Source of the DNA: Moorena sp. SIOASIH
GTDB taxonomy: Bacteria > Cyanobacteriota > Cyanobacteriia > Cyanobacteriales > Coleofasciculaceae
Assembly (NCBI RefSeq): GCF_010671925.1
Contig: NZ_JAAHIH010000001.1
Location: 933,053 to 997,052 of the forward strand
Reading direction: 5' to 3'
DNA: 64,000 bases
Part shown: positions 20,165 to 64,000 of the stretch, in pieces
Numbering within the stretch: the stretch's first letter is position 1
Layout of the letters: every line of letters begins with the position of its first letter
Notes under the pieces: model-generated
Told to the model about the DNA's origin: nothing
Seen by the model: only the letters and a program-made list of their open reading frames with translations
Database searches by the model: none
Program-made: the position numbers and the translations under genes

Positions 20165-20185
20165 CCGTTTGAGGTATGAGCTATA

Positions 20186-20262
20186 GCAAAGGGAACAGGG
20201 AATAGGGAATAGGGAATAGGGAGCAGGGAGTAGGGAGCAGCGAGCAGGGAAGAAAAATTCTC
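20186..20262. repeat. STRR heptamers (GGGAATA/GGGAGCA)
   Basis: Direct reading. Confidence 0.9.
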
Positions 20263-20369
20263 GCAATTTATTTAGGGTCCCTATATTAGCTATGAGCTAT
20301 TAGGTATTAACCCTGAGAAAATTGTTAATGGTGATTTTCCATTTTCTATTTTTGAGTGGCAAGCCTTTG

Positions 20370-28088: not shown

Positions 28089-28465
28089 AGACCGTGTCTT
28101 GATGCAAAGCGCGAGTGGGGGAAACCACGGCAGTTGCTCATCGGGGGAACCCCCAAGACCGCACTGCCTCACGGTCATCTCAAGCACCATTAGCAAGTTC
28201 AGGTGACGTGACCTCCCCAAGACCGTAATGGTGCGTTTGACCCGTAATTAAATTCGCCACGGGTCGCACCTCTGCATAGCTTAATCAGTTGGTGTTTAGA
28301 AGAAAAGGAGCAAGCAAACTAATCTATAGAGATGGCTAGATAGAGTGGGTAACACCTTACCACCCAGCGATGCAGCGCGGTCTTGGGGAGGCAGCGCGGT
28401 CTTGGGGGTTCCCCCCATGAGCGACTGCCGTGGTTTCCCCCATGAGCGACTGCATCAAGAAGTGA
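28089..28465. repeat. Large imperfect palindrome (about 95-nt arms, about 140-nt spacer) built from sub-repeats (GGGGGAAACCACGGCAGTYGCTCATSGGGGG and CCCCAAGACCGC)
   Basis: The reverse complement of 28370-28465 aligns to 28089-28165 and 28205-28225 with more than 85% identity. Candidate MITE or structured regulatory RNA. Confidence 0.8.
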
Positions 28466-28811
28466 AAAAAAATCCCCAGCTCACCAAAGTGAACCGGGGG
28501 TGTCAATCAGGGTGCATCTACCATTTCACTTTTCCGAGATTGGTGATAGCAATCCGGAAAAATCTGGGTAAAGTGGCACCCAAATGCTGGAATTAGGAAA
28601 TTTTCTGATTCACAACAATTAACAGAGTATGCCTTGGAAACCTTAAATAAAAAACGGCATCAATACCATGAGCCAACAAGAATTTTCCCCTAAAGGAATA
28701 CTCCTCAATAAGCAAATAGTAAACAAATATTCAAGAATTTTTAAACCTTCAGCCAAAGCTCGTCACTATGAGCAAAATTGATCCCTTGAAATTGAGCAAA
28801 ATTGGGCAACA

Positions 28812-47864: not shown

Positions 47865-50800
47865 ATGCTTAACTCGATCCTGAAGTGGTCTATTGCTCGA
47901 CGTTGGCTAGTTGTAATTGGCGCTATCATCGTCACAGTTTGGGGATTTCGCATTGTTTCCCAAATGCCCTTAGATGTATTTCCCAACTTTGCTCCTCCCC
48001 AAGTTGAAATTCAAACGGAAGCACCGGGATTGGCTCCAGAAGAAGTGGAATCTTTAGTCACAATGCCTGTCGAAAGTGCGATCAATGGCATTCCTGGATT
48101 GACTACAGTACGCTCTTCTTCGGGAGTGGGCATTTCGGTAGTAAAAGTTATTTTTAAATGGGATACTAATATTTATCAAGCTCGCCAGTTAGTAACTGAA
48201 CGGTTACAACAAGCTGCTGCCAGATTACCGGAAGGAGTAGAATCACCGCAAATTTCTCCCCTTTCCTCGCCCATTGGTACCATTCTTTCCTACGCTTTTA
48301 CCATTGACGAAGATGTAGAGACGGGAGATGTCCCCTCTAAAATTGACCTAATGGCTGTGCGTCGATTGGTTGACCGAGATATTACCAACCAATTATTGGC
48401 AGTAGCGGGGGTAACTCAGGTAATTGCCTATGGGGGAGATGTGCGTCAGTATCAGGTACTGGTTGACCCTGCCAAGTTAACCGCTTTTGATGTTTCCTTA
48501 GCAGAAGTTACCCAAGCAGCAGCAGCAGCAAATACTAATGCAGCGGGTGGCTTTCTGATTAGTCCAGACAAGGAACTATTAATTCGAGGCATTGGACGAG
48601 TTGAGTCAATCGAGGATTTAGAACAATCGGTGGTAGTGGCACGTAATGGCACACCAGTGCTGCTTTCTGATCTCGCTGATGTCCGCATTGGTGCTGCCTT
48701 GAAGCGGGGTGATGGTAGCTTGGATGGGAAAAAAGCGATTGTGGTGCTAGTTAACAAACAGCCCCTCGCTGATACTCCTACTGTTACTAAAGCCGTAGAA
48801 GCAGCAATGGAGGAAATTAAAGCGGGTTTGCCTAATAATGTCAAGGTTACTGTTACCTTCCGCCAATCCGATTTTATTGATGCCTCAATTAAAAATGTCA
48901 GGAATGCTTTGCGCGATGGCATCATTATTGTTTCTATTATTTTGTTTCTGTTCTTGATGAACTGGCGCAGTGCCATTATTACCCTAAGCGCCATTCCTCT
49001 GTCTTTGTTGATTGGGATGATGCTACTCAATCTCTTTGGTTTGGGAATTAATACCATGACTTTGGGAGGACTAGCTGTAGCAATTGGGTCAGTGGTAGAT
49101 GACTCAATTGTAGACATGGAAAATTGCTACCGGGGATTACGAAAAAATCAGCAAGCAGGAAATCCTATCAACCCTTTACAGGTGGTTTATAACACCTCAG
49201 TGGAAGTGCGAGTTAGTGTGCTGTTTTCTACAGTAATTATTGCTGTAGTCTTCGCACCAATTTTTACCCTTACTGGTGTTGAAGGTCGTATCTTTGCACC
49301 GATGGGAGTAGCCTATCTAGTGTCAATTTTCGCCTCTACATTTGTAGCCTTGACTCTGAGTCCAGCTTTGTGTGCTTTCTTGCTTGCTACTGTACAGTTA
49401 CCGGAAGAAGAAACTTGGGTAGCACGGTTTTCTAAAAAACTATATCAGCCATTAATTCGATTTTCTCTTCATGCTCCCAGTCTAGTTTTGCTAACAGCAG
49501 TAGCCGGGTTTGTGGCTTCTCTAATTATTTTTACCTCTCTAGGACGAGTCTTCTTACCAGAGTTTCAGGAGCGATCGCTTGTGAATGCTTTCACTCTCTA
49601 TCCCGGTGTCTCTCTGGAAATGACGAATCGGGTTGGTTCAGCCATGCAACTAGCTCTCAAAGATGACCCCCGGTTTGAGTCAGTGCAGTTACGTTCAGGG
49701 CGTGCTCCCGGTGATGCTGATGCTGGTAGTGTTACTCTGGGCCATTTGGATGTGGAAATTTCAGAGGAGGGGATGAAAGACCGAAAAGCAACGATTGAGA
49801 AACTCCGTGAGGAATTTGCTAAGTTACCGGGGGTAGCTCCCAGTATTGGTGGTTTTATTTCCCACCGCATGGATGAAGTCCTCTCAGGAGTCAGGAGTGC
49901 GATCGCAGTAAAAATTTTTGGTCCGGAACTTTCGGAATTACGAACTATTGGTGCTCAAGTTCGAGATGCCATGCAAGATATTCCTGGTGTGGTTGATCTA
50001 ATTCTTGAACCCCAAATTCCGATCAAACAGGTGCAAATTACGTTTGACCGGGCTGCTGCTGCCCGTTATGGTCTTAGTGTTGGTCAGCTTTCAGAAATTG
50101 TTGAAACTGCTCTCAATGGTAGAGTTGTCTCGCAAGTACTCGAAGAGCAACAGTTATTTGATTTAGTAGTGTGGTTGAAAGCCGAATACCGCAATAATCT
50201 TAATACCATTAGCAACCTGCTAGTTGACACTCCCACGGGCACTAAAATTCCTCTTGCCCAAGTTGCTCAGATTAGTTATGGTAAGGGACCCAACACAATC
50301 AACCGCGAAAATGTTTCTCGCCTGATTGTGGTTTCAGCTAATGTTGCTGATCGAGATTTAGGTAGTGTAGTTGAAGAGATTCAAGCCACAGTCAAGGATA
50401 AAGTACAATTACCTTCCGGCTACTTTATCCAATATGGAGGACAGTTTGAATCAGAACAACGAGCATCTCAAAATTTACTAGTATTCGGTACTCTGGCACT
50501 GATTGTGATTGCTATTTTAATGTACTTTGCTGTCAAGTCAATTTCAGCAACAGTAATGATTATGCTCAATCTGCCTCTAGCATTAACTGGCGGAATTTTT
50601 TCCGTTGCCCTCGGTGGTGGTATTCTCTCTGTTGCTTCCATGGTAGGGTTTATCACTCTCTTTGGTGTTGCTACCCGCAATGGTTTACTTCTGGTAGATA
50701 ATTACAATAATAAATTTGCTCAGGGAATGCCTTTAAAGCAAGTAATTATTGAAGGTTCAACGGAACGATTAGTGGCAATTTTAATGACAGCGTTGACTTC

Positions 50801-51035
50801 AGCGTTAGGAATGGTTCCTCTCGTAATTGGCACGGGGGCAGGGAAAGAAATTTTACAGCCATTAGCAATAGTTGTTTTGGGAGGGTTGTTTACGTCTACA
50901 GCTTTAACCTTATTGGTATTACCAGCTCTGTATGCTCAGTTTGGTCGCTTTTTCATATCTAAACCCATAAATTCTGGGATTTCACCTGAAGAATTAAATT
51001 CATCTTTTAAACGGGGTTCAGTGGTGGGTAAATAG
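47865..51035 (+). CDS. Heavy-metal efflux RND transporter (CzcA/CusA family)
   Basis: 1056 aa, 12-TM RND topology. N-terminal MLNSILKWSIARRWLVV...FPNFAPPQVEIQTEAPG is typical of the HME subgroup. Confidence 0.9.
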   Translation: MLNSILKWSIARRWLVVIGAIIVTVWGFRIVSQMPLDVFPNFAPPQVEIQTEAPGLAPEEVESLVTMPVESAINGIPGLTTVRSSSGVGISVVKVIFKWDTNIYQARQLVTERLQQAAARLPEGVESPQISPLSSPIGTILSYAFTIDEDVETGDVPSKIDLMAVRRLVDRDITNQLLAVAGVTQVIAYGGDVRQYQVLVDPAKLTAFDVSLAEVTQAAAAANTNAAGGFLISPDKELLIRGIGRVESIEDLEQSVVVARNGTPVLLSDLADVRIGAALKRGDGSLDGKKAIVVLVNKQPLADTPTVTKAVEAAMEEIKAGLPNNVKVTVTFRQSDFIDASIKNVRNALRDGIIIVSIILFLFLMNWRSAIITLSAIPLSLLIGMMLLNLFGLGINTMTLGGLAVAIGSVVDDSIVDMENCYRGLRKNQQAGNPINPLQVVYNTSVEVRVSVLFSTVIIAVVFAPIFTLTGVEGRIFAPMGVAYLVSIFASTFVALTLSPALCAFLLATVQLPEEETWVARFSKKLYQPLIRFSLHAPSLVLLTAVAGFVASLIIFTSLGRVFLPEFQERSLVNAFTLYPGVSLEMTNRVGSAMQLALKDDPRFESVQLRSGRAPGDADAGSVTLGHLDVEISEEGMKDRKATIEKLREEFAKLPGVAPSIGGFISHRMDEVLSGVRSAIAVKIFGPELSELRTIGAQVRDAMQDIPGVVDLILEPQIPIKQVQITFDRAAAARYGLSVGQLSEIVETALNGRVVSQVLEEQQLFDLVVWLKAEYRNNLNTISNLLVDTPTGTKIPLAQVAQISYGKGPNTINRENVSRLIVVSANVADRDLGSVVEEIQATVKDKVQLPSGYFIQYGGQFESEQRASQNLLVFGTLALIVIAILMYFAVKSISATVMIMLNLPLALTGGIFSVALGGGILSVASMVGFITLFGVATRNGLLLVDNYNNKFAQGMPLKQVIIEGSTERLVAILMTALTSALGMVPLVIGTGAGKEILQPLAIVVLGGLFTSTALTLLVLPALYAQFGRFFISKPINSGISPEELNSSFKRGSVVGK

Positions 51036-51236
51036 GTAAGCTATCAGCCATCAGCTATCAGCGGTCAGCTTAGTCAGTGTCAACTGTTTTACTGGTTATC
51101 TAGCAATTCTCTTTCCCATCAGGTACAAAGGGATCCCCCTAAATCCCCCTTAAAAAGGGGGACTTTGAGGTTTATAAGTGTACCTCATAGATGCAATAAA
51201 CGCTATAAACTAAATTAGTTTGAAAGGAGTAAAAGT

Positions 51237-51710
51237 ATGGGTTCATGGTTGCAGTCAAGTTTAATTGTTATCTCTAGTGTGGGATTGATATTTATAGCCT
51301 CCTGCGGCAATACTACGAAAGAGACTACTCAAACTACCTCTTCAGAAACTGTCACCAAAACTGAGAAGGTTGATTCCTCTCCCCATGATCACAATCACTC
51401 CCAAGGTGGTCAAGTGATTGAATCTGGTTCTTATCATTTAGAGTTGTTACCTATCGTAGAAAAACAGGGAATTCACTTAGACTTTTTCCTACAACAGGGT
51501 GAGGAACACAAAAGTGTATCTAATGCCAAAGTCAAGGCTCAAATCCAGTTACCAAATGGTGAGCAAAAGAATCTGGATTTCAGCTATGACCAGGCTGGTA
51601 AACATTACGCCGCTTTTTTACCTGGGAAAGCTACTGGGGAATATAAGGTTGTCATTCAAACTGACATTAACGGGGAAAAAGTCAACGGTCGCTTTTCATT
51701 TAAACAATAA
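51237..51710 (+). CDS. Putative periplasmic lipoprotein of the metal-efflux cluster (157 aa)
   Basis: Lipobox-like IASCGN. HDHNH motif. Confidence 0.4.
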   Translation: MGSWLQSSLIVISSVGLIFIASCGNTTKETTQTTSSETVTKTEKVDSSPHDHNHSQGGQVIESGSYHLELLPIVEKQGIHLDFFLQQGEEHKSVSNAKVKAQIQLPNGEQKNLDFSYDQAGKHYAAFLPGKATGEYKVVIQTDINGEKVNGRFSFKQ

Positions 51711-51741
51711 ATCTTGAATAAATATTGTGGGTAAATAGATC

Positions 51742-52614
51742 ATGAATCGTTTGGTTAGCGCATTACTAGTTAGTTCTACTTTGTTTCTGGCTCAAAGTTG
51801 TTCAACACCAGTGCAATCTGGAGATGCATCTGTTGAGGGAGATAAACACCATGGTCACCATAATCACAATGAGCATGGTCATCACCATGGTAGCCATGGT
51901 CACGGAAATAAACCATCAGTAAAGACTAAAGCTATACTAACGACTCCCTCAACAATTACTTTAGATAAACCAAATAATTTGGTAATTGATATTCAAGACT
52001 CTGAGGGAAATGCTGTTCCTGATTTTGAGGTTTTCCAAGAAAAAATAATGCATTTAATTGTAGTCAGTGATGATCTTGATTTTTACGATCATATTCATCC
52101 TGATTACAAAGGGAATGGAAGGTTTGAAGTTGAAGCTAATTTTCCTAAACCTGGTAATTACACTCTTTTTAGCGATTACAAACCAACCGGAAACCCAGAG
52201 CGAGTGTCGGTGCTAAAAGTAAAAGCACCAGGCACTAGTTCATCTCTAAATGATAGAGAAATTAAAAATACTAAAGTCTTTGGCAAGACCAAGGTTGAGC
52301 TGAGTTTTGATAAACCCAAAGTTCAGGCTAATGAAGAAGTGATGATTAGCTTTAATTTAAAGGATGCTGCTAATAATAATCCGGTTAATGATTTACAACC
52401 TTATTTGGGAGAAGTTGGTCATTTAGTAATTGTTAAAAAATCAGAATCTATAACAGCATCTGATTACATTCATGCTCACGCACTTCCAGGTAAAACTACT
52501 GAACCGATACGTTTTGCTACCCAATTTCCTGAAACAGGCACATATAAAGTGTGGGGTCAATTTAAGCGTAATGGTGAGATTGTAACCGCTGATTTCTGGG
52601 TCAATGCACTTTGA
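51742..52614 (+). CDS. His-rich periplasmic metal-binding protein with an internally duplicated domain (290 aa)
   Basis: Signal peptide. The HHGHHNHNEHGHHHGSHGHG tract. Two homologous domains of about 100 aa (DHIHPDY... and DYIHAHALPG...). Confidence 0.5.
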   Translation: MNRLVSALLVSSTLFLAQSCSTPVQSGDASVEGDKHHGHHNHNEHGHHHGSHGHGNKPSVKTKAILTTPSTITLDKPNNLVIDIQDSEGNAVPDFEVFQEKIMHLIVVSDDLDFYDHIHPDYKGNGRFEVEANFPKPGNYTLFSDYKPTGNPERVSVLKVKAPGTSSSLNDREIKNTKVFGKTKVELSFDKPKVQANEEVMISFNLKDAANNNPVNDLQPYLGEVGHLVIVKKSESITASDYIHAHALPGKTTEPIRFATQFPETGTYKVWGQFKRNGEIVTADFWVNAL

Positions 52615-52639
52615 GTAAATATCTCATTTGGTAAGCACT

Positions 52640-52740
52640 CAGCAGTTGGCCGTAAGCATTCAGCAGTTGGCAGTCAGCATTCAGCAGTCAGCAGTCAGCA
52701 GTCAGCCGTTGGCTGATAGCTGATAGCTGATCGGACTTAC
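52640..52740. repeat. STRR heptamers (CAGCAGT/AGCTGAT)
   Basis: Direct reading. Confidence 0.9.
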
Positions 52741-52841
52741 CAATAATCACAATCAGGGATATCATAATTACTCTACTGGAGTTGATCAGATTTGCGGAAT
52801 CTTCTCCTGTTATCCTTTATCCTTGATACGTCAGCCTGGAA

Positions 52842-53471
52842 ATGACCGAGTCTTCCTATCCCAATTACAGTGAACAGTTGCGACAACTTATGGCACAAGT
52901 GGGTATTCCTAGTTTTAAGCAACTCAGTCGCAGGGCTGATGTTTCCGAGTTGCAACTGAGGCGTTTGCGGAAAGGTCAGGTGTCCCAGATGCAGCTAAAA
53001 ACGCTGCTGAAACTTGCTCAAGCGTTGCAGGTGTCGGTGAATCAGTTACTGGTTATGTTTTTGCCAGATTCTGTTTCTACCTTACAGGAGGAAGACTCAA
53101 CATTAAAGCAGGAGTACCAGCGTCTGGAACAGCAGTTGGAACAGCAGCGCGAGACTTTAATGCAAGAGTTTCAGCAATCTAGTTTACAAGTGCTAGAATC
53201 CTGGCTAGTGCAATGGCCCACTGCTGCTTATGCGGCACAACAGAATGAGCAGTTACCAGCAGTGAGATTATTGCCCCTGGTAAAGCCAGTGGAACAGTTG
53301 CTAGAAAAATGGGGTGTGGAAGCGATCGCATCTGTGGGTGAAGAACTCCCTTACGATCCACAAAAACACCAACTCATGTCAGGCACTGCTCAACCAGGTG
53401 ATACGGTTAGGGTACGTTACACTGGTTACCGCATTGGTGATAAGTTGCTGCATCGTGCTAAAGTCACCTAG
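52842..53471 (+). CDS. XRE-type helix-turn-helix protein with a GrpE-like C-terminal domain
   Basis: N-terminal HTH (SFKQLSRRADVSELQLRRLRKG). C-terminal VRVRYTGYRIGDKLLHRAKV resembles the GrpE beta-domain. Confidence 0.45.
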   Translation: MTESSYPNYSEQLRQLMAQVGIPSFKQLSRRADVSELQLRRLRKGQVSQMQLKTLLKLAQALQVSVNQLLVMFLPDSVSTLQEEDSTLKQEYQRLEQQLEQQRETLMQEFQQSSLQVLESWLVQWPTAAYAAQQNEQLPAVRLLPLVKPVEQLLEKWGVEAIASVGEELPYDPQKHQLMSGTAQPGDTVRVRYTGYRIGDKLLHRAKVT

Positions 53472-53693
53472 TGTAAGCCTTGGCAATTCCCGGTAATCTC
53501 CGTAATTGCCCACTAGGTTGCAGACTCAGGATGATTTGCTTCCTACGTTGCTTTGGTTATGACACCTAGGAGTGAACTCCAGCCCCTAGCTCTGTCGCCA
53601 ATCATTAAGACAAAGGCAAAACGTGTGGTTGGCAAAACACAAGCCATAGCAACATTGTCGAGGAACACATTACCAATTTTGAGGCATTTAACA
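53472..53693 (+). ncRNA. Candidate omega-RNA scaffold associated with IscB-1
   Basis: Non-coding block immediately 5' of iscB. Shares conserved segments (ATGACACCTA..., ...CTGTCG..., ...ACATTGTCRAGG...) with the block upstream of IscB-2. Boundaries uncertain. Confidence 0.35.
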
Positions 53694-54953
53694 ATGCAAA
53701 ATTATGTCTTTGTTGTTGACACAAATAAACAACCATTGAATCCTATATCACCGAAGAAAGCACGGCGATTACTAGACAAAGGTAAGGCGGCGGTTTTCAG
53801 AATGTACCCGTTCACGATCATCTTGAAGACTGCGGTTGATAATCCCACCATCTCACCCTGCCAAATCAAGATTGATCCTGGCAGTAAGGTGACTGGATTT
53901 GCCTTAGTCCAAAACCACCAAGTTATTTGGGGAATGGAATTAGAACACAGAGGAGGGTTGATCAAGAAAAAACTAGAGTCTAGAAGAGCAGTGAGGCGTG
54001 GAAGACGCAATCGTAATACCCGCTACAGAAAACCCAGATTCCTTAACCGTAGGCGTCCAGGAGGTTGGCTTGCCCCTAGTTTAGAGCACCGGGTTTTGAC
54101 TATTGAGACTTGGGTAAAACGATTAACTAAGTTTTGCCCGGTTGATGAGATTTGGATCGAAAGAGTTAAGTTTAATACCCAAAAAATACAAAACCCTGAA
54201 ATTAATGGTGTTGAGTACCAACAAGGCGAATTAGCTGGGTATGAGGTCAGAGAGTACTTATTAGAGAAATGGGGAAGGGAATGCACTTACTGCGGCAAGA
54301 AATCCGTACCATTACAAATTGAGCACATTCGCCCAAAATCTAAAGGGGGGAGCGATAGGGTAAGCAACCTTTGTTTAGCTTGCGAGAAATGTAATCAACG
54401 AAAAGGAAACAAACCTATAGAGGAATTTATCAAAAAAAAGCCAAACTTATTGCAAAAAATTAAAACCAAAGCCAAACAACCACTATTGGATGCAGCGGCA
54501 GTAAATACGACTCGCAACAAGTTAGTAAAAGTGCTCCAGAGAATCAAGCCTGTAATTACTGGAACCGGAGCGCAGACCAAGTATAACCGGACTAAATTAG
54601 GTTTTCCTAAGGAACATTGGATTGATGCTGCCTGTGTCGGTAATATTGAGACATTGGTCTTGAAAACCTCTCAACCACTGTTAGTCACTTGCAAGGGGCA
54701 GGGGGGTAGACAAAAAGCAGTACTTAACAAGCACGGTTACCCGATTAGACACAATCCATTAAGACCGATCAAGGGTTGGTGTAGTGGAGACATAGCCAAA
54801 AACCTCCTGACCGGAAAGTTTGGGAGAGTTAACCCTAGGAGCAAAAGCAACTCTTTCAATTACACAGTCCCAAGAAAAAAGGCAATAAGCTTACACGTTA
54901 AGAACTTGACCAGGGTTCACAGAAAAGATGGGTACACTTACGGTTTTTGCTAA
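53694..54953 (+). CDS. iscB: IscB RNA-guided nuclease (OMEGA system; PLMP, RuvC-I, Arg-rich bridge, RuvC-II, HNH, RuvC-III)
   Basis: PLMP-like N-terminus (VFVVDTNKQPLNPISPKKARRLLDKGKAAVF). RuvC-I KIDPGSKVTGFAL. Bridge helix RRAVRRGRRNRNTRYRKPRF. RuvC-II IETW...E. HNH CTYCG...EHIRPKSKGG...CEKCNQRKGN. RuvC-III HWIDAAC. Confidence 0.85.
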   Translation: MQNYVFVVDTNKQPLNPISPKKARRLLDKGKAAVFRMYPFTIILKTAVDNPTISPCQIKIDPGSKVTGFALVQNHQVIWGMELEHRGGLIKKKLESRRAVRRGRRNRNTRYRKPRFLNRRRPGGWLAPSLEHRVLTIETWVKRLTKFCPVDEIWIERVKFNTQKIQNPEINGVEYQQGELAGYEVREYLLEKWGRECTYCGKKSVPLQIEHIRPKSKGGSDRVSNLCLACEKCNQRKGNKPIEEFIKKKPNLLQKIKTKAKQPLLDAAAVNTTRNKLVKVLQRIKPVITGTGAQTKYNRTKLGFPKEHWIDAACVGNIETLVLKTSQPLLVTCKGQGGRQKAVLNKHGYPIRHNPLRPIKGWCSGDIAKNLLTGKFGRVNPRSKSNSFNYTVPRKKAISLHVKNLTRVHRKDGYTYGFC

Positions 54954-55014
54954 TAAATACCAGGAACTGCCTGGAAATAGTCGTCCTATTACTTACAGTT
55001 AATATAGCAAAGGT

Positions 55015-55232
55015 AACAGGGAGTAGGGAGTAGGGAGTAGGGAGTAAAGAATAAAAATTATCACATAATTCAATTTAGTCATTATAAAATTGTTAATTGC
55101 TATTTTATATTTTCGATTAACAATTTTATATTTTATATTTGTCAGCCGTTTACCTTAAGCTGATGTGAATTTAAATTGGTTATTACCTGTTCCCTGTTCC
55201 CTGTTCCCTGTTCCCTTTGACTAATTTTAGAT
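55015..55232. repeat. STRR heptamers (GGGAGTA)n and (CCCTGTT)n flanking an AT-rich spacer
   Basis: Direct reading. Confidence 0.9.
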
Positions 55233-55256
55233 ATCCCAATCTAAATGCTGAACAGC

Positions 55257-55952
55257 TTAATTAACTGCTTTGATACCATTAAGATGCCCATCTTCCATAT
55301 TAACAATCCGGTCAGCAATATCGAGAATTCGATTGTCGTGAGTAACGAGTAAAATAGTACATCCCTGTTCTTTTGCTAACTGCTGCATTAAATCCACCAC
55401 TTCACGACCGGATTTACTGTCTAGGGCTGCTGTTGGTTCATCGGCTAAGAGTATCTTGGGATTACCCACTAAAGCACGAGCGATCGCAACTCGTTGTTTT
55501 TGTCCTCCAGAAAGTTTATCTGGGTAGTAATTCACCCACTTACCTAACCCCACTGCTTCCAATATAGCTACTGATTTAGTCATAGCATCTTTAGTGGAAA
55601 GTTCTGGGTGTAGTTCTGCTGACATTTGCACATTTTGGCGAGCTGTTAAACTCTTGAGTAAGTTATGAGCCTGGAAAATATAGCCAATATGACGCCGCAC
55701 TGCTATCAAATGACGTTTATTGGCTCCTAGCAGTTGCTGTCCTAGGATTTTGAGACTACCAGCTTGAGGCGATCGCAATCCTCCGATTAGGGTTAGTAAT
55801 GTGGTCTTACCCGATCCAGAAGGACCAGTCATCAACACAATTTCTCCTTGGTGGATGTCTAGGTCAATATCAAACAAAACCTGTTTCCGTAGGAAACCCT
55901 TACCAAAGTAATGGTTGAGATGCTTAATGGATACAACTGGTTCGTCCACCAT
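55257..55952 (-). CDS. ABC transporter ATP-binding protein, DevA/MacB/LolD type
   Basis: Walker A GPSGSGKTT, the LSGGQKQRVAIARAL signature, and Walker B LLADEPT. Confidence 0.85.
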   Translation of the reverse strand: MVDEPVVSIKHLNHYFGKGFLRKQVLFDIDLDIHQGEIVLMTGPSGSGKTTLLTLIGGLRSPQAGSLKILGQQLLGANKRHLIAVRRHIGYIFQAHNLLKSLTARQNVQMSAELHPELSTKDAMTKSVAILEAVGLGKWVNYYPDKLSGGQKQRVAIARALVGNPKILLADEPTAALDSKSGREVVDLMQQLAKEQGCTILLVTHDNRILDIADRIVNMEDGHLNGIKAVN

Positions 55953-55989
55953 GACAGTTTTCGTTCCTACCTAGTTATTAGTTATTGAT

Positions 55990-56290
55990 TATAGTTTTAG
56001 GGTAAGCATTCAGCCGTCAGCTGTCAGCTGTCAGCCTAATGCTTAAAATAAACCTCGAATGGGAGAATTTAATAGTTCGAGATTTTATCGAATTGAAATT
56101 CTGGGGAAAAGCCCTTGGCCTGTGGCCGCGCTACTTGAGGTGCAGATGTAACTCAGATTAAACGAATGCTTACCTCTTTTATTCAAAAGCTGTTCGCAAA
56201 GCGTGCGCATCGCCCATAAGTTGATAGCTGATAGCTGATAGCTGATAGCTGATAGCTGATAGCTGATAGCTGATAGCTGATAGCTTACAT
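55990..56290. repeat. STRR arrays plus a dispersed repeat unit (AATGCTTAAAATAAA...GGGAGAATTTAATAGTTCGAGATTTTATCGAATTGAAATTCTGGGG), and (GATAGCT) in about 9 copies
   Basis: Intron-less paralogue of the group II intron insertion site, lying in the devC-devA intergenic region. Confidence 0.85.
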
Positions 56291-57439
56291 TTAAAAAATA
56301 TCAGCGGGATCGGCTGCTTGGAGTTTCCCGATCGCGATCGCACCGGAAATACAACACATGATAATCGTCAGAATCAACACTGTCAGTGCCCTAGCTAGAC
56401 TCATAGCTATGGGTAAACTGGTAGCATTTTTAGTTAAACTATACAACCCTAATGCCAGTCCATATCCGGGAAAATAACCTAAAATTGCCAGAATCAGAGC
56501 TTCTTGAAAAACAACAATCAATAGGTAGGTGGTTTTATAACCCATGGCTTTGAGGGTAGCATACTCAGGTAAATGATCCGCGACATCAGTATATAGAATT
56601 TGATAAACAATCACTGTACCCACGATAAATCCCATCGCGCTACCGAGGGTAAAAATAAAGCCAATAGCTGTACTGCTTTGCCAGTAAGCTTTCTCCCAAT
56701 TAACAAACTCTTCCTTGGATAAAACTCTAACATCCTTGGAAAGTTCGCGCCTCATCTTCTCTACAACTGTCTCCAAATCTAACCCTGGTTCTAATTCAAT
56801 CAAACCGATATCAATCAGTCCTCTATGGCGGTCAGGGAAAAGGCGGAAAAAGTTTAAATCACTGGTGATCACATTTCCATCTGCTGCAAAGGAAGCCCCT
56901 AGGGTGAATAAGCCTCCTACTCGAATGCGACGTTCTTTGACTTCAGTGGTTATCTCTTTGCCCTGATTAAACTCTTCAGCAATAGGACCATATTCAGGTC
57001 TGGATCTGTCATCGAACAAAACTACATCCGGCATTTTAATCGTATCCAGATTGCTGGTTACTCCAGATAAATTGAAGACGTTGTCAGTAGGATTAAACCC
57101 AATCACAAGTACATTACGACTTTCACGGGTTTGAGGATTTTTCCAGAGGGCAAAGTCCATATATATCCCACTAATTGATTTGACCCCATCAAATGCAATA
57201 CTTTGATACAACCTGCGACTAGGAAAACTTTTCATAGCGAGTGTTGCCTGGGACTGGGGACTAATCAAAAAAATGTCACCTTGTAAGCTATTATGTAGTG
57301 TCACATTACTTTCAAACAGGGCATCCCGAAAACCCATTTGCATAAACATTAAAATATCGGCAAAAGCAATTCCTGCCAGTGCCACCAGCAAACGCATTTT
57401 TTCATGGGTCAATTGTAACCATGCTAAAGGTATTTTCAT
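56291..57439 (-). CDS. ABC transporter permease, DevC/FtsX-like
   Basis: N-terminal TM helix, a large periplasmic domain, and C-terminal FtsX-type TM helices. Confidence 0.8.
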   Translation of the reverse strand: MKIPLAWLQLTHEKMRLLVALAGIAFADILMFMQMGFRDALFESNVTLHNSLQGDIFLISPQSQATLAMKSFPSRRLYQSIAFDGVKSISGIYMDFALWKNPQTRESRNVLVIGFNPTDNVFNLSGVTSNLDTIKMPDVVLFDDRSRPEYGPIAEEFNQGKEITTEVKERRIRVGGLFTLGASFAADGNVITSDLNFFRLFPDRHRGLIDIGLIELEPGLDLETVVEKMRRELSKDVRVLSKEEFVNWEKAYWQSSTAIGFIFTLGSAMGFIVGTVIVYQILYTDVADHLPEYATLKAMGYKTTYLLIVVFQEALILAILGYFPGYGLALGLYSLTKNATSLPIAMSLARALTVLILTIIMCCISGAIAIGKLQAADPADIF

Positions 57440-57613
57440 GATTAATATTTACTGGTTAATTACTATTTTTTAATTCAAAATCAAAAATTAAAAATTAAAA
57501 ATTAATAGCCTTATACTTTGTAAGTGTTTCCACCGGATACAAGCCCACGAATTAATTTATAGGTTAGTTTTGAATTTTGAATTGATAATTTTTAATTGGA
57601 GCAAAGCGATTGA

Positions 57614-58933
57614 CTAATCACTAATCACTATTTTTACGATGACTTGGGAGTTAGTTAAATCAGCAACTGTTTTGCTGTCTTCCGGATTGAGACGAATATC
57701 TACTTCGACAACTCTGGCATCTACGTCAGCGGCTGGATCAGTGTCAAGAACATCCTGTTTGTCAATTTGTTGCCCAATTCTAACTACACTGCCATTGAGT
57801 TTATCCTCAAATGCCTTGCTTTCACTAATAATTGTTACTTTCTGTCCTAGCTTGACTTTACCAATATCACTTTCGTAGACTTCAGCAACAACCATCATTT
57901 GGTCAGTTTGCCCTAGTTCCACAATTCCCTTTTCTTGATCTACGGTTTCTCCTGGATAAGTGTTAATTTTCAAAATTTGACTATCTAGTGGAGAATGCAC
58001 GTAAGCAAATTTTAATTCTGCTTCGGCTTGCTTGACTTGTGCCATAGCCATTTCTAGCTCCGCTTCAGCCTGTCTAATATCTACTAGACGTACTTCTTTT
58101 ATCTCTTCGAGGGTAGCTTTGGCTTCGTTAATCTGTGCTTCTACCACAGCTAGGGTTTGGTTGCGGTTGACAATAGCTTCTTTGAGTTGTTCCCTGAGGG
58201 TGCTTATAGTTTGGGTGCGGTTGGCTATGGCTTCACTCACGCTCTCTTGGGCGGTTTCTACGTTTAGGCGGCGGCTGTCCAATTCGGAAATTGCGATCGC
58301 ACCGTCTCGTTCTAACTGGTCATAGCGCTGAAAATCTGCTTGCACATTCCTTAACTGAGCCTTTAATCGCCTGACTGTGGCATCTTTTTCTTGTTGTGTT
58401 TCTTGCAGCTGAGTCTGTAAACGGTCAATGCGAGTTTGTAGCGCCTCCTTCTGCCCCCGATACTCTGCCTCTAGTCGTTTAATCTTAGCCTCCTGAGCAG
58501 CAATGGTTCCACTTTTAGCACCGGCTTTGACTTTCTCCAAGTTCGCACGGCTTACTTTAACCTCCGCTTTCGCCCGTTCTAAATCCGCTTGTAAGCGATC
58601 GCGATTTTCCATGATGGCAATCAATTGATTGGCACCTACTTTATCCCCTTCCTTAACCAGTAACTGAGCCACCCTTGGTGCTTGAAAAGTTGTTGGAGCA
58701 GCTAATTGAATAACTTCCCCCTCAGGTTCGAGACGTCCTAGAGCAGTTACAGCTCGGATAGCTGGGGTTGTACTGGGGGATGGCACTGGTTCTGGTGGGC
58801 GCTCACGGACCATTTCCAAACTGTATCGGCTAGCGACCACAGTTGCCAGAATCCCAACACCAGCCAGTACAATCACCCAACGGCTTAGGGGCTTTGATAA
58901 TCCCTGATCTTTTATGCCAATCTTTGGCTCCAT
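57614..58933 (-). CDS. Membrane-fusion protein, DevB/HlyD-like, with a long coiled coil
   Basis: N-terminal TM helix. Extended alpha-helical coiled coil (QADLERAKAEV...). C-terminal beta domain. Confidence 0.75.
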   Translation of the reverse strand: MEPKIGIKDQGLSKPLSRWVIVLAGVGILATVVASRYSLEMVRERPPEPVPSPSTTPAIRAVTALGRLEPEGEVIQLAAPTTFQAPRVAQLLVKEGDKVGANQLIAIMENRDRLQADLERAKAEVKVSRANLEKVKAGAKSGTIAAQEAKIKRLEAEYRGQKEALQTRIDRLQTQLQETQQEKDATVRRLKAQLRNVQADFQRYDQLERDGAIAISELDSRRLNVETAQESVSEAIANRTQTISTLREQLKEAIVNRNQTLAVVEAQINEAKATLEEIKEVRLVDIRQAEAELEMAMAQVKQAEAELKFAYVHSPLDSQILKINTYPGETVDQEKGIVELGQTDQMMVVAEVYESDIGKVKLGQKVTIISESKAFEDKLNGSVVRIGQQIDKQDVLDTDPAADVDARVVEVDIRLNPEDSKTVADLTNSQVIVKIVISD

Positions 58934-59079
58934 GACTCCTCCGGTTAAATCAACCTCTGTCGGTTATATGAGTCATAACCATTTCTTGTGTGCCATATTA
59001 TATGGCTCCTTACTATTTAATCTATCATAAAGTTAATAATATATGAGCACCGCTAACAGATTTTTTGAGAAGTCCCTCA

Positions 59080-59607
59080 TTACTGGGTCAGCTGAAATTC
59101 AGCAGAGTGCATAGCAGGGGTTCCCGCTCGCAACTTTGCTAAAAGTTTAACGAAGGTTTTCTTTTCTGCACCAGTCAGGTGAGCCATCAAACCTGTCACC
59201 CGATTAAAGTGGTCGGGAAGCATTTGCTTCAAGAACTGCCAACCCTTTGGAGTCAGCTGAACCATCAGCATCCGTCGGTCATCTGGGTGCGGCTGGCGTT
59301 TAACTAACCCTTGACGTTCGAGACCATCGAGCAGACCTGTGATCGTCCCACGAGTAACACCAGCCTGTTGAGCACATTCGGAAGGAGTCAAGCCTAACGA
59401 ACCCGCCTTGTGTAATAGCATGAGTACAGTAAACTTACCGATTGATAACTCGTAGCGACCCAAATGAGTCTCAATCGCTTCGTAGATTTCAGTGGTAGTT
59501 TTCAGGAACGACAGACAAGTAAACACTGATGCTATATCTAGCTCAGGGTACTGTCTCGCCACATTTAGCAGTTCCTGCTCTGAGGGAAGGTCACGTTTAG
59601 TGAACAT
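59080..59607 (-). CDS. MarR-family transcriptional regulator
   Basis: Winged HTH: LSIGKFTVLMLLHKAGSLGLTPSECAQQAGVTRGTITGLLDGLERQGLVKR...DDRR. Confidence 0.85.
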   Translation of the reverse strand: MFTKRDLPSEQELLNVARQYPELDIASVFTCLSFLKTTTEIYEAIETHLGRYELSIGKFTVLMLLHKAGSLGLTPSECAQQAGVTRGTITGLLDGLERQGLVKRQPHPDDRRMLMVQLTPKGWQFLKQMLPDHFNRVTGLMAHLTGAEKKTFVKLLAKLRAGTPAMHSAEFQLTQ

Positions 59608-59853
59608 AGTCTATCCCCTTAAAAAAGTTTGCCGACTTATTATTATCGTGCCTTACTATAGTATTTCTCAAATAGGTGAGGTATACAAGTTGTGGATTTA
59701 AGGGAACAGGGAATAGGGAATAGGGAATAGGGAACAGGGAACAGGGAACAGGAAAAAAATCCTGTTTACCTCATTAATATGAGAAACGCTATCATCCATT
59801 GCTCCATCCCTAAACTAATCAGCAAACTAATCAGCTTTACGATTGATTAAGTA

Positions 59854-60594
59854 TCAAGATCCTGGCAAGTCAAATAACACCGAAGTCATATAGTTCTCTG
59901 CCCATTCAACACCAAACGCTTTTTCAAGCACCCGCCGGGTTTTGTCATTCTGCCGCTGCTTGCTGCAATAATAGTGTTGACTAGCAATAATTTCTGCTTG
60001 CTTTTCTCTAGAGACCGGTAGCGCATTAGCAGCATGGGCACAGTGAATCTGTAATAAATCATCCACCCATGCCAGGAACTGTGCTTCTTCTTCTGGACCA
60101 TTGGGACGCACAAAAATGCAAAATTCTGAAAAAATGTCTGCCCAAGGTGGTAAGTCACGGGGCTGTTTAAACTCAGGTTTTGGTAGGTTCTCTAAAGAAC
60201 AGTGATAGGCTTCTGGTAAGGTACGTTTAGGGTTGAGTGGAGAAAGGTCTGCGATCGCAGCACTAATTTGTCCTCTAGCTGCCACCACATCACAGCCAAA
60301 CATGGGCAAAGCATAGTCTGGACGAGGAAACATTACACAGTGTAAAATATCCAACATCTCACCTACTTTTGCCAATTCCAGGTGCATTTTCCGAAACTGA
60401 GGTGTCTGATAGCAATGGTTTTCGATAGTCAGTTTCTCTCCCTCAAGCCGTCCTTGTACGTAGCCTAACTCGGCTGGTAAATGATAAGGAGAAAGGTCGA
60501 AGTAGCGCCGCCAGTTCGACTCTATACAGTCTGCCAGCTTAGCGCACAGAGGGTTTTGTTGGGTTCTTAGGGATGGCGTGGAAGTGGTTGACAT
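59854..60594 (-). CDS. pcyA: Phycocyanobilin:ferredoxin oxidoreductase
   Basis: 246 aa. Blocks [44 protein letters not shown] and [10 protein letters not shown] match PcyA. Confidence 0.88.
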
Positions 60595-60930
60595 TCCTTA
60601 ACACTTAAAGGCTATGGGTAAAATTGAGGCAACAGGCTTGCAGACCAAAGGGTTGGATGGTGTTTCCCCCCATTATCCCCTTTAACAAGAGGGGTAGGAA
60701 AAAGACAAAAGGCATACAAGACTTGAAGTATCAACCATTGCATTGATTGTCACCTTTGCCAATGGTATATTTTTATACTTAATCTTTCATCCTTCATCCT
60801 TCGACCTCTATCTTCTCACCTTATCGGTGACCATCAATTGGAGCAAGACATCCTAAGTATGGACCTCGGATAAGCTTAGGATATCAGCTTGCCATGGGCA
60901 ATCCTTTAGCGCTACACAAAACTTTGTTAC

Positions 60931-61221
60931 TGCTGGGATGGGATAAAGGATTTTGTTTGCGATCGCATCGAATTCCGACCATGTAGCATCGACTAGGGGT
61001 GCATTGCTGAATCTTCGGATGAATGTGAGTGGGGTGGCATCCTGCCCGCCCGAAAATGACTACTTTGATTACTGCTGGGATTGCATGTAGGATTTTGTTT
61101 GCGATCGCATGGAATTCCTTCCTAGTAGCATGGACTAGCGGGGCATTGCTGAGGGGCGGGATGAATGTGAGTGGGGTGGGCATCCTGCCCGCCCGAAAAT
61201 GACTACTTTGAGTGGGCGACC
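60931..61221. repeat. Tandem duplication of an approximately 145-bp unit (2 copies, about 85% identical), each containing a GC-rich stem-loop (GGGCGGGATG...CATCCTGCCCGCCC)
   Basis: Direct alignment of 60931-61078 against 61079-61221. Confidence 0.85.
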
Positions 61222-61372
61222 GAGATTTCCCTAGGTTGATTGTGCGCCTAGTAAAACCATAGAGTAGATTAGCTAGACAATTTTTTTGCTTGGCCGTGAA
61301 GTAGGATGGGCTAAGTGCTATAAAGCAGTTCAAGGTTAATTAAAAGTTAAAAGGAGTTTGGAGGAAATTGCT

Positions 61373-61555
61373 ATGTTTGGTTTAGGATGGCCCGAAGTGA
61401 TGATTATTGGTGTTGTGGCAGTTGTGATTTTTGGACCGAAGAAAATTCCTGAAATCGGCAGCGCCCTAGGGAAAACCCTCAGAGGCTTCAAAGACGAGAT
61501 GAATAATCCGACATCAGAAGCTGAGGAGTCACAAACTCAGCAGAAAGATTCATAA
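61373..61555 (+). CDS. tatA: Sec-independent protein translocase subunit TatA/E
   Basis: MFGLGWPEVMIIGVVAVVIFGPKKIPEIGSALGKTLRGFK is canonical TatA. Confidence 0.85.
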   Translation: MFGLGWPEVMIIGVVAVVIFGPKKIPEIGSALGKTLRGFKDEMNNPTSEAEESQTQQKDS

Positions 61556-61791
61556 TTAACAAAACTTTCGACGGTGCATTCATCCCACGCTGACCATTTT
61601 TGAATGGTCGCGAAGCGATTGACGTTAGGGTTCAGATCTGGCTATGGAAGGCGTTGTCAGCTATAACAATGCCTGCATTAGAGGGTTTCTCATAGTAACG
61701 AAGTACACAGGATTTTTTCCCGATTCCCGACTCCCGATTCCCGATTCCCGATTCCCCAATCCCTAGTCTTTTCATCCTTCGTTGTCCGCGA

Positions 61792-62502
61792 TTAGCCCGA
61801 AGGGCTACGCTTCGCGAACGCATCTAACTGCTGCCAGTCATTGATAATAATTTTGCCTCCCCGCTTGTAGGTAACCACTGAATTGATCGAATTTATCTTT
61901 TTGAACAAACGCACGCATTCTTCATAGGTTATACCTATACTGCGAGCAATTTGATAGTACGGAAGGTTGACATTTAAGGAGTCTCCCTGAGCAACAGACT
62001 GAGTTCCATAGCGAGTTGCATAGTATTGCAGCAGACGCACCAGTCGTACAATTGCCCTTTCAGAAATTAGCCCATGTACGGTGTTATGAATTTGTTGCAA
62101 GCGTTGATTAAAGACTTCCAGGATTCGCAACGCCACTTCTGGGGTCTGGCGAATAGTCTCTAACAGCGCCTCTCGTTCTATGGTTAGCACTCGGGAGTCC
62201 ACCTGACAAATAACTGTTGCGGGAGCAATACCATTACCAAAAATTGCCGGAGCCGCAAAAATATCCCCCTCAGGGATGATGCGCAAAAGGCTTTCTTTAC
62301 CACTCGTCCCGGTTTTTTTAATTTGCAGAGTTCCCTTGATTAAGGCATAGAGTTGGCAGGGCAGGCGATCGCCCTCGTAGATCACAATCTCATCCCGCAA
62401 ATAAGTCCTTACTTTGGTATAAGGCTGAAGATTCTCTAGCGCTGAAGTTTCTAGGTCCTTAAGCACCCAGACTTGAGCTAATTGTTCAATCGATGAGACC
62501 AT
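61792..62502 (-). CDS. Crp/Fnr-family transcriptional regulator (cNMP-binding domain plus C-terminal HTH); not NtcA
   Basis: cNMP-binding beta-roll (IYEGD...GKESLLRIIPEGDIFAA) and HTH (YQIARSIGITYEECVRLFKK). Confidence 0.85.
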   Translation of the reverse strand: MVSSIEQLAQVWVLKDLETSALENLQPYTKVRTYLRDEIVIYEGDRLPCQLYALIKGTLQIKKTGTSGKESLLRIIPEGDIFAAPAIFGNGIAPATVICQVDSRVLTIEREALLETIRQTPEVALRILEVFNQRLQQIHNTVHGLISERAIVRLVRLLQYYATRYGTQSVAQGDSLNVNLPYYQIARSIGITYEECVRLFKKINSINSVVTYKRGGKIIINDWQQLDAFAKRSPSG

Positions 62503-62779
62503 GCCTAGTAGTCCTTTGAGAGTGTTTGATAGTTATGATCAACAATTTACTTCGTTTATGAGCTAGCTCAAGGACAGCCCTAACTATTTCTGTCACAGTA
62601 AAAGTAACAACGAGTTCAGAGATATAGCAGAAGTCAGAAGTCAGAAGTCAGAAGTCAGAAGTCAGAAGTCAAACTCTTGCGCTTACTTAGGTTTGAGACT
62701 TTTGTCATGTCCGCGCCTGCCCTGGCGACTGCTATATTTCCAAATCAATGAACTTCCTACCTAAATTTGAGATGAGGAA

Positions 62780-63033
62780 AGGATAGTCAATAACTCACCG
62801 CTAAATCTTTAAGATTATAGCGGGAGCTTGTAAAAAGCTCATAGTTGACCAGACTAAGCTCACTTATGAGCTACGTTATTTCGCTCATGACACCTACAGA
62901 TACGTGCCAGTTTGTAGCAACTGTCGTACAGCTTTAAACAGGTGTAACGAGTTAAGCCAGTGAGTTGTACCTAACAAGGCGTTTATAACATTGTCAAGGC
63001 AAACTTTACCCACATTGTGGAGTGATCAAAGTA
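62780..63033 (+). ncRNA. Candidate omega-RNA scaffold associated with IscB-2
   Basis: Shares conserved blocks with 53472-53693 (CTCATGACACCTACAG..., ...CTGTCGTACAG..., ...CATTGTCAAGG...). Confidence 0.35.
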
Positions 63034-64000
63034 ATGCGAGTTTTCGTACTAGACCAAAATAAACAACCTCTAGACCCTTGTCATCCGGCAAGAGCTAGGG
63101 AACTACTCAAAAAAAGAAGGGCTAAAGTTTTCAAACGTTATCCATTCACAATTATTTTACAAGATAGAACTCTGGAAAATTCAGTAACTCATTCACACCG
63201 AATCAAAATAGACCCTGGCTCTAAAACAACGGGGCTTGCCATTGTTCAAGAGCCAACAGGTCGAGTAACTAGTGCTTTAGAAATCTTTCATAGAGGACAG
63301 CAGATTAAAGATGCTCTTGAGTCTCGTAGAGCTAATAGGCGTGGACGACGTAACCGCAAAACCCGTTACCGTAAGCCTCGTTTCTTGAATCGGACACGCA
63401 CCACAGGATGGCTTGCTCCATCATTAATGAGTCGTATTTTCAATATTGAAACTTGGGTTAGACGACTTACGAAGCTTTGTCCTGTCAGCGCAATATCTCA
63501 AGAGTTAGTCCGCTTTGATCTGCAAAAAATGCAGAATCCTGAAATTAGCGGAGTTGAATACCAACGCGGTGAGTTGTTTGGATTTGAGGTCAAGGAATAC
63601 TTGCTAGCTAAGTGGGGACGAAATTGTGTTTACTGTGGTGCGGAAAATGTGCCGCTAGAAGTAGAACATATTATCCCTAAGTCTAAGGGTGGCAGTAACA
63701 GAGTTAGTAATTTAACCCTAGCTTGTCGGTGTTGTAATCAAAAGAAAGGAAATGACCATATTGAGAAGTTTATCAAGAAAAAGCCAGCCATTCTCAAACG
63801 AGTATTATCCAAGGCAAAAACACCACTGAAGGATGCAGCAGCAGTGAATGCTACTCGCCTTGTATTGTTCAGAAGATTGCATTCAACTGGACTGCTTCTA
63901 GAAACTGGATCTGGTGGTTTGACTAAATTTAACCGAAAGACCAGAGGTATCGAAAAAAACCACTGGACGGATGCTGCTTGTATTGGGAAATCAACGCCGG
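63034..64000 (+). CDS. iscB: IscB RNA-guided nuclease, second paralogue (3' end beyond the window)
   Basis: MRVFVLDQNKQPLDPCHPARARELLKKRRAKVF (PLMP). IKIDPGSKTTGLAI (RuvC-I). RRANRRGRRNRKTRYRKPRF (bridge). HNH CVYCG...EHIIPKSKGG...CRCCNQKKGN. HWTDAAC (RuvC-III). About 60% identical to IscB-1. Confidence 0.85.
   Translation, partial: MRVFVLDQNKQPLDPCHPARARELLKKRRAKVFKRYPFTIILQDRTLENSVTHSHRIKIDPGSKTTGLAIVQEPTGRVTSALEIFHRGQQIKDALESRRANRRGRRNRKTRYRKPRFLNRTRTTGWLAPSLMSRIFNIETWVRRLTKLCPVSAISQELVRFDLQKMQNPEISGVEYQRGELFGFEVKEYLLAKWGRNCVYCGAENVPLEVEHIIPKSKGGSNRVSNLTLACRCCNQKKGNDHIEKFIKKKPAILKRVLSKAKTPLKDAAAVNATRLVLFRRLHSTGLLLETGSGGLTKFNRKTRGIEKNHWTDAACIGKSTP

Follow-up and report, generated by a model that had tools for sequence, protein, structure and literature searches.

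A probable transposase-less OMEGA-type IS200/IS605 element encoding IscB in the cyanobacterium Moorena sp. SIOASIH

A 64,000-nt stretch of contig NZ_JAAHIH010000001.1 from Moorena sp. SIOASIH (hereafter the window) was analysed, and the subject of this report is an insertion on its forward strand that encodes the RNA-guided nuclease IscB, ancestral to Cas9, downstream of a predicted omega-RNA. Such pairs are known as OMEGA systems, short for obligate mobile element-guided activity. Related loci were used for comparison: L001-L011 are close relatives, L012-L019 constitute a distant group, and L023-L026 are alleles of the same chromosomal site in other Moorena genomes. The scan of open reading frames (ORFs) included 20 other ORFs of the window. 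The locus is composed of the following features.

52842-53471, + strand: host gene on the same strand as iscB, encoding a 209-amino-acid (aa) protein with HTH_26 and GrpE domains
53449-53464, + strand: putative guide TGCATCGTGCTAAAGT, the last 16 nt of the grpE-like gene before the element, directly outside the element end
53465-54995, + strand: IscB element, 1,531 bp, without a transposase
53465-53693, + strand: omega-RNA (HEARO-type) scaffold of 229 nt, corresponding to the transposon right end and delimited by the HEARO match, the covariation and the start of homology
53465-53467, read on the + strand: transposon-encoded end motif CAC, the first three bases of the element
53694-54953, + strand: iscB coding sequence, 419 aa, with ATG at 53694 and a stop codon ending at 54953
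IscB residues D61, E156, H308 and D311: RuvC catalytic residues, aligned with the catalytic positions of solved IscBs
IscB residues H211, N225 and N234: HNH catalytic residues, aligned in the same way
IscB residues C197, C200, C230 and C233: zinc ligands
54954-54995, read on the reverse strand: transposon left end, 42 nt, where homology continues past the stop codon
54996-54998, + strand: beginning (CAG) of the putative target-adjacent motif, outside the element and conserved since the element inserts next to the motif

The 419-aa ORF shows the full IscB architecture that the first-pass annotation had recognized in it. The Pfam profile RRXRR (PF14239) matches with E 3.7e-74 over residues 5-178, corresponding to profile positions 1-174 of 174. 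The Pfam HNH domain (E 5.5e-14, residues 197-240) follows RuvC-II and precedes RuvC-III, and CxxC pairs stand on both of its sides. The motifs observed are PLNP at residue 14, IDPG at residue 60 (with D61), an Arg-rich stretch at residues 96-121, IERV (E156), CTYC at 197, EH (H211), CEKC at 230, and HWID (H308 and D311). The catalytic positions, described as intact from the first reading, align with those of solved IscBs. In an alignment of 16 sequences, D61, H308, D311, H211, N225, N234, and the four zinc-binding cysteines are invariant, and E156 is nearly invariant. A longer mechanical ORF starting from TTG at 53553 was considered and rejected. All 15 aligned homologues begin with MQNY, with a conserved ATGCAA in front, and therefore the ATG at 53694 is taken as the start.

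The search against the Protein Data Bank (PDB) returned IscB proteins for all of the top 8 matches, including TbaIscB (E 1.8e-44), HfmIscB (1.1e-26), and OgeuIscB (7e-26). They are followed by IsrB and Cas9-like chains, and the classical Cas9 proteins match over the HNH domain only (E 7e-08). With a profile made from 16 homologues the matches become stronger, reaching 9.2e-60 for TbaIscB. The protein is compact and has no recognition (REC) lobe; it aligns collinearly with the solved IscBs, and no large insert interrupts the match. In the C-terminal domain, the family profile aligns to HfmIscB only as far as position 374 of 418.

The window protein is identical to NEO35572.1 / WP_293091849.1, which both RefSeq and UniRef name "RNA-guided endonuclease IscB". 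At least 8000 homologues were found at E <= 1e-20. Several paralogues are present elsewhere in the SIOASIH assembly, namely P0130 (88% identity), P0150 (81%), P0167 (80%), and P0181. A scan of the genome collection revealed no 100% match. The Nei-Gojobori comparison of the window iscB with those of L001, L002, L003, L006, L007, and L008 gave dN (nonsynonymous divergence) of 0.06-0.12, dS (synonymous divergence) of 1.1-3.2, and dN/dS of 0.04-0.07. By this measure the iscB family is under strong purifying selection. Judged from the alignments, the ORF at 53694-54953 is a full-length IscB with its catalytic residues intact, and it is apparently functional.

The noncoding sequence just upstream of iscB had been proposed to be an omega-RNA, and the structural evidence agrees. 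When the interval 53200-53900 was searched alone, the Rfam family HEARO (RF02033) matched 53482-53673 with 82.5 bits (E 4.6e-17, model positions 1-211). The match covers the full-length model, including the outer stem, the pseudoknot strands, and two long hairpins; the window RNA is devoid of part of one HEARO hairpin. Ten relatives, nine among L001-L011 and the distant L017, score 85-92 bits. RNAalifold predicted 56 base pairs from 11 scaffolds, and 24 of these show compensatory double changes. Standard pairing is observed in 97.7% of the cells, compared with 27-42% when the 3' partners are slid by 1-3 columns, and none of 500 shuffles matched the observed pairing or covariation score. The window RNA alone has a minimum free energy of -68.8 kcal/mol (z -3.1). 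As the first reading had also suggested, sequence blocks are common to this region and the region upstream of a second IscB in the window: CTACGTT, ATGACACCTA, and AACATTGTC.AGG.

The actual first stem of the scaffold pairs CCUAGU (53467-53472) with ACUAGG and begins 17 nt upstream of the match reported by Rfam. It covaries, as CUUAG/CUAAG in L009, and opposite the A/U at 53466 stands a pairing U/A. The 5' stem is mis-placed in the Rfam HEARO model. Nucleotide identity to the closest copies is around 80% over the whole element, and the mean column identity of the scaffold alignment is 75%. Conservation of the scaffold despite saturated dS in the adjoining ORF (at least 1.1) is read as selective constraint on the RNA.

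Short inserts were observed in some of the relatives. A 25-nt palindromic insert (TTCGCGCAAGCGTGTGCGAAGCACT) lies within the omega-RNA of L003 (about 2955-2980), L007, and L008, and in-frame inserts of 24 nt (8 aa) lie within the iscB ORF of L001 and L003. A very small mobile palindromic repeat, tolerated by the element, may account for them.

The boundaries of the element were defined through alignment with its relatives. On the 5' side, the sequences upstream of the start codon were aligned for the window and 11 related loci (12 copies in total). Homology begins abruptly at 53465 (C[A/T]CCTAGT...), and upstream of this position all copies differ. On the 3' side, L001-L010 remain homologous to the window for about 42-45 nt beyond the stop codon, up to ~54995-54998. 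BLASTN of 53465-54995 against L001 and L002 aligned positions 1 to 1526-1528 of 1531. Thus, the scaffold and the element start at 53465, overlapping the upstream stop codon, rather than at 53472 where the locus had first been placed, and the element ends at 54995.

Both ends contain subterminal hairpins. The left-end hairpin, CCAGG-AACTG-CCTGG at 54960-54974, was detected in a terminator-like scan; its stem is CCGG...CCGG in L006 and L007, so that the pairing is kept. The right-end hairpin, GGCAAUU/AAUUGCC, lies within 53482-53510. These hairpins are the putative binding sites of the transposase TnpA.

The motifs at the two ends agree with each other. CAC at the right end is accompanied by CAG beyond the left end in 7 copies (the window, L001-L005, and L010), CTC by CTG in 4 copies (L006-L009), and mixed combinations are found in none; the end motif of L011 is degenerate. 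The distant group (L012-L019), to which the second copy of the window belongs, starts with GTCA. It is apparently followed at its far end by RTGA, a tentative assignment made by eye from a poor alignment. In IS200/IS605 elements, the target-adjacent motif and the transposon-encoded motif are both read by related DNA guides in the transposon ends (Meers et al., bioRxiv 10.1101/2023.03.14.532601). The covarying end motifs, as aligned here, are the relation expected for IS200/IS605 elements mobilised by TnpA.

The site of insertion was compared with its counterparts in other Moorena genomes. The proteins flanking the IscB element are 93-100% identical to Moorena proteins, and the grpE-like neighbour is 100% identical to P0001, annotated as "nucleotide exchange factor GrpE" from Moorea sp. 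SIOASIH. In L025, where the neighbour protein is 97% identical, the genes for the grpE-like protein and an ATP-binding cassette (ABC) ATPase converge and overlap with nothing between them. In L026, from M. bouillonii, the site holds only a 250-bp AT-rich block flanked by short tandemly repeated repetitive (STRR) sequences. The window site is composed of the STRR block plus the IscB element. Two further alleles, L023:3640-4999 and L024:1734-3093, are orthologous to window 53465-55256 and carry an element encoding a 405-aa TnpB (OrfB_IS605) after TTTAAC, 21 bp further on. The convergent junction of the grpE-like and ABC genes may be a recurrent landing site for IscB and TnpB elements of the IS200/IS605 type.

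L025 was dropped as the reference for the empty site, as it is devoid of the 250-bp STRR block, and L026 is the better comparison. The junction in L026 reads GCTAAAGT-CAG-TCCAGC-TAATATAGCAAAGG, and that in the window reads GCTAAAGT|CACCTAG...element...CTTA|CAG-T-TAATATAGCAAAGG. The comparison of the two junctions places the element between AAAGT and CAG. No target-site duplication is present around the IscB element.

The STRR block of the window lies outside the IscB element, at 54999-55256 (~250 bp). Its parts are (GGGAGTA)x4, an AT-rich core, and (CCTGTTC)x4, and direct repeats of ACAG(C)TTAAT lie on either side. It is present without IscB in M. bouillonii (L026:3633-3925, 80% identity) and absent from L025. 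It may be a small STRR-bounded insertion. The setting in general is rich in STRR, as noted at the first reading, with many 7-nt tandem arrays between 50 and 64 kb of the window. Together with a match to the small RNA NsiR1, the STRR sequences could point to a Nostocales genome, a reading that was rejected in view of the 93-100% identity of the flanking proteins to those of Moorena.

At its right end, the element overlaps the end of the host gene. The stop codon TAG of the grpE-like gene (53469-53471) is inside the element and is part of the first RNA stem. The orthologous proteins have 211 aa, ending with ...KVSPV or ...KVSPA, or have 221 aa, and the window protein ends with ...KVT. The grpE-like gene in its present state terminates at a stop codon supplied by the element.

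The guide and the target-adjacent motif had been called unknown in the first-pass annotation; both can in fact be inferred from the element boundary. The guide would correspond to 53449-53464 and the motif would begin with CAG at 54996-54998, the motif beyond CAG being a further extrapolation. The putative guide TGCATCGTGCTAAAGT is unique in the window. A guide length of 16 nt is assumed here in analogy to IscBs already characterised, such as OgeuIscB.

The guide of IscB is known to lie 5' of the right-end-derived scaffold, outside the transposon, and iscB elements are biased to sit behind a gene on the same strand, with transcription entering from the flank (Meers et al., bioRxiv 10.1101/2023.03.14.532601). 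The arrangement in the window follows this pattern. In a promoter scan, no sigma-70-like promoter was found between the grpE-like gene's own promoter region and the scaffold. This negative fits read-through transcription, for which it is weak evidence. The guide is DNA outside the element end and no promoter of its own precedes it, so transcription would have to come from the upstream gene.

These observations suggest the following scheme. Transcription of the upstream gene, which shares the strand and leaves no gap, would read on to produce a single RNA with the guide, the scaffold, and iscB, and IscB would bind the guide-scaffold RNA. A Y1 TnpA encoded elsewhere in the genome would mobilise the element in trans, excising it to leave a scarless empty site. 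The excised joint would be GCTAAAGT|CAGTTAATATAG, in which the match to the guide is followed by CAG. IscB is expected to recognise this empty site and to cut it with RuvC and HNH, and repair from the sister chromosome would reinstall the element. While the element is in place, CAC instead of CAG comes after the match to the guide, and the occupied site is plausibly protected from cutting by this.

Taken together, the locus is very probably (roughly 90%) an OMEGA-type IS200/IS605 insertion sequence that encodes IscB and derives its omega-RNA from the transposon right end. No TnpA is encoded within the 1,531 bp, which leave no space for one, or by the scanned ORFs, and the element is therefore classified as non-autonomous. 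It is stand-alone, as had been thought from the start.

Several points weigh against this reading. The HEARO score of the window copy, 82.5 bits, is 0.5 bit below the Rfam gathering cut-off of 83. For this reason the Rfam run on the whole window at the gathering threshold missed it and reported HEARO only upstream of the second IscB (62786-63009, 132.9 bits). Neither Y1 transposase nor TnpB was found among the 20 other ORFs of the window that were scanned, which are housekeeping genes such as those for HisRS, PsbO, a sigma factor, FtsW, and P-II; this agrees with the absence of a nearby TnpA that had been noted earlier. The closest copy known from another genome shares only 88-90% protein identity, and its synonymous sites are saturated; there is therefore no direct sign that this particular copy has moved recently. 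Finally, when the window flanks are joined, the site is 5 nt shorter (CCAGC is missing) than the L026 and L025 alleles, and neither of them reproduces the window flanks exactly. Window 53449-53471 and 54996-55010 were compared with L026:3612-3645 for this purpose, and the sequence is CAGT-TAATA in the window and CAGTCCAGCTAATA in the element-free alleles. Such a difference would not be expected from a scarless IS200/IS605 insertion. An indel specific to the strain, located between the two CAG repeats, could explain it, as could an imprecise event. Perfectly scarless insertion is therefore not demonstrated.

Some of these points would also be expected if the copy were stranded and decaying, i.e., immobile for want of a compatible TnpA in the genome, with an IscB that has no function and is becoming a pseudogene. 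The failure to find tnpA in the window and the divergence of at least 10% from the closest relatives, with saturated synonymous sites, are in line with this, as are the truncated relatives: L011 encodes 310 aa, L016 encodes 381 aa, and the 90% cluster includes several fragments. The window copy itself, however, is full length, with intact catalytic and zinc residues and fully maintained RNA pairing, and the family-wide dN/dS is about 0.05. The assembly contains several other IscB paralogues. The absence of tnpA is normal for iscB, since only about 1.5% of iscB genes are near tnpA (Meers et al., bioRxiv 10.1101/2023.03.14.532601). A stranded copy is thus unlikely.

Domestication, the other possibility raised in the first-pass annotation, fares worse and is very improbable. 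It would mean that the host keeps the nuclease or the RNA for a role of its own, such as the regulation of the two convergent genes, grpE-like and ABC-transporter. It would account for the position between two conserved host genes, for the host-gene stop codon supplied by the element, and for the lack of a nearby TnpA. The closest relatives (L025, L026, and L023), however, do not carry the insertion at the orthologous site, and such presence and absence among Moorena strains is accompanied by defined transposon ends, both retained with their covarying motifs. The catalytic residues are intact rather than inactivated, and the guide is nothing more than DNA from the flank, just as it is for mobile copies.

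That the ORF is some other HNH protein (a McrA-type restriction endonuclease, a group II intron protein, or a Cas9 fragment), as "5-methylcytosine-specific restriction endonuclease McrA" in some JGI homologue records and plain "HNH endonuclease" in older NCBI records might imply, is refuted by the end-to-end RRXRR match, the HEARO RNA upstream, and the IscB proteins at the top of the PDB matches, with no reverse-transcriptase domain in the Pfam search and with tandem arrays only of period 7-21 nt, none of CRISPR (clustered regularly interspaced short palindromic repeats) length, in 50000-64000. The outcomes that would have spoken for such a protein did not appear: no profile assigned the ORF to a family other than IscB, a structured RNA is predicted upstream, and the catalytic residues are preserved.

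A modest new lead concerns the C-terminal part of IscB in relation to the end motifs. In a comparison with L006, L007, and L009, discrete types are seen at residues 356-419 (window 54759-54950), and the rest of the protein is 80-89% identical, which gives the appearance of a mosaic. For instance, IscB of L006, a copy with CTC/CTG, is 89% identical to the window IscB over residues 1-355 and 58% identical over 356-419. The C-terminal types track the end motifs: type A is associated with CAC/CAG, type B with CTC/CTG, and a third type with GTCA/RTGA. It is quite possible, although this is put forward only tentatively, that the last ~64 residues are an exchangeable module, presumed to be the reader of the target-adjacent motif, which switches together with both end motifs. 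The covariation suggests that the motif-reading domain co-evolves with the transposon ends or is exchanged along with them, which is expected in principle. If a real module swap has occurred, it would be a natural example of the re-targeting of IscB through exchange of the C-terminal domain and would provide a ready-made pair for engineering. The covariation of module and end motifs could guide domain-swap engineering of motif specificity.

The IscB elements ISGst from G. stearothermophilus (bioRxiv 10.1101/2023.03.14.532601) resemble the window element in several respects. They have the same right-end scaffold upstream of iscB with the guide outside the element, and they likewise show a same-strand upstream gene, no tnpA, and motifs differing at one position (here CAG versus CAC). 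They differ in the host, which is a cyanobacterium here, and in the end motifs; TTCAC is a wild-type ISGst2 transposon-encoded motif in that paper.

OgeuIscB (PDB 7UTN, 7XHT, and 8CSZ) has the same domain order, and its HNH histidine aligns as well. Residues D61, H308, and D311 of the window protein align with D60, H339, and D342 of 11hr_A, a 495-aa IscB chain. We take this chain to be OgeuIscB-like, and the aligned residues are presumably D61, H340, and D343 of OgeuIscB. The relationship is distant (E about 1e-25), the window protein is ~77 residues shorter (419 versus 496 aa), and no sequence alignment was obtained for the C-terminal domain. TbaIscB (PDB 9K30), the best match with a solved structure (E 1.8e-44 with the single protein and 9.2e-60 with the family profile), is 1068 aa long with large extra N-terminal regions, and only its residues ~498 to 856 correspond to the window IscB. 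The system of TnpB and its omega-RNA (OrfB_IS605) belongs to the same transposon family and follows the same selfish logic. TnpB differs in being a RuvC-only nuclease, with the guide RNA at the 3' end of the gene and the target-adjacent motif 5' of the target.

The IscB element is already known in kind: the protein is named IscB in RefSeq, and all features match the published description of OMEGA systems. Rfam has included HEARO for years. The novel part is the anatomy at the level of the element only, i.e., its ends, its guide, part of its motif, and the element-free states of its site, all of them readable from the sequence by itself. The locus offers a clean example from nature of the OMEGA model as published and matters little beyond annotation; no long-standing question is opened or settled by it. 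Through it, the candidates for genome editing gain one more compact IscB, of 419 aa and with its RNA scaffold defined.

The second IscB element of the window occupies 62786-64000. Its HEARO RNA is at 62786-63009, and its ORF, which starts from 63034, runs off the window end. The protein is 61% identical to that of the first copy; the scaffold starts with GTCA, and the C-terminal module is of the third type. The first gene upstream of the element (61792-62502) runs on the opposite strand, and at 62628-62671 there is a (CAGAAGT)x6 STRR.

Two other features were recognized in the window. A group II intron is present at 17149-18772 on the + strand, with an ORF for reverse transcriptase/maturase at 17149-18684 (RVT_N, RVT_1, and GIIM domains) and an Rfam Intron_gpII match at 18694-18772. 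It adjoins an FtsW/RodA gene at 18896-20266 on the - strand. NsiR1 (nitrogen stress-induced RNA 1) is a small RNA family described from heterocyst-forming cyanobacteria, and the host here is Moorena. The Rfam match to NsiR1 is found at 28465-28523 on the - strand, with 66.1 bits against a cut-off of 39.

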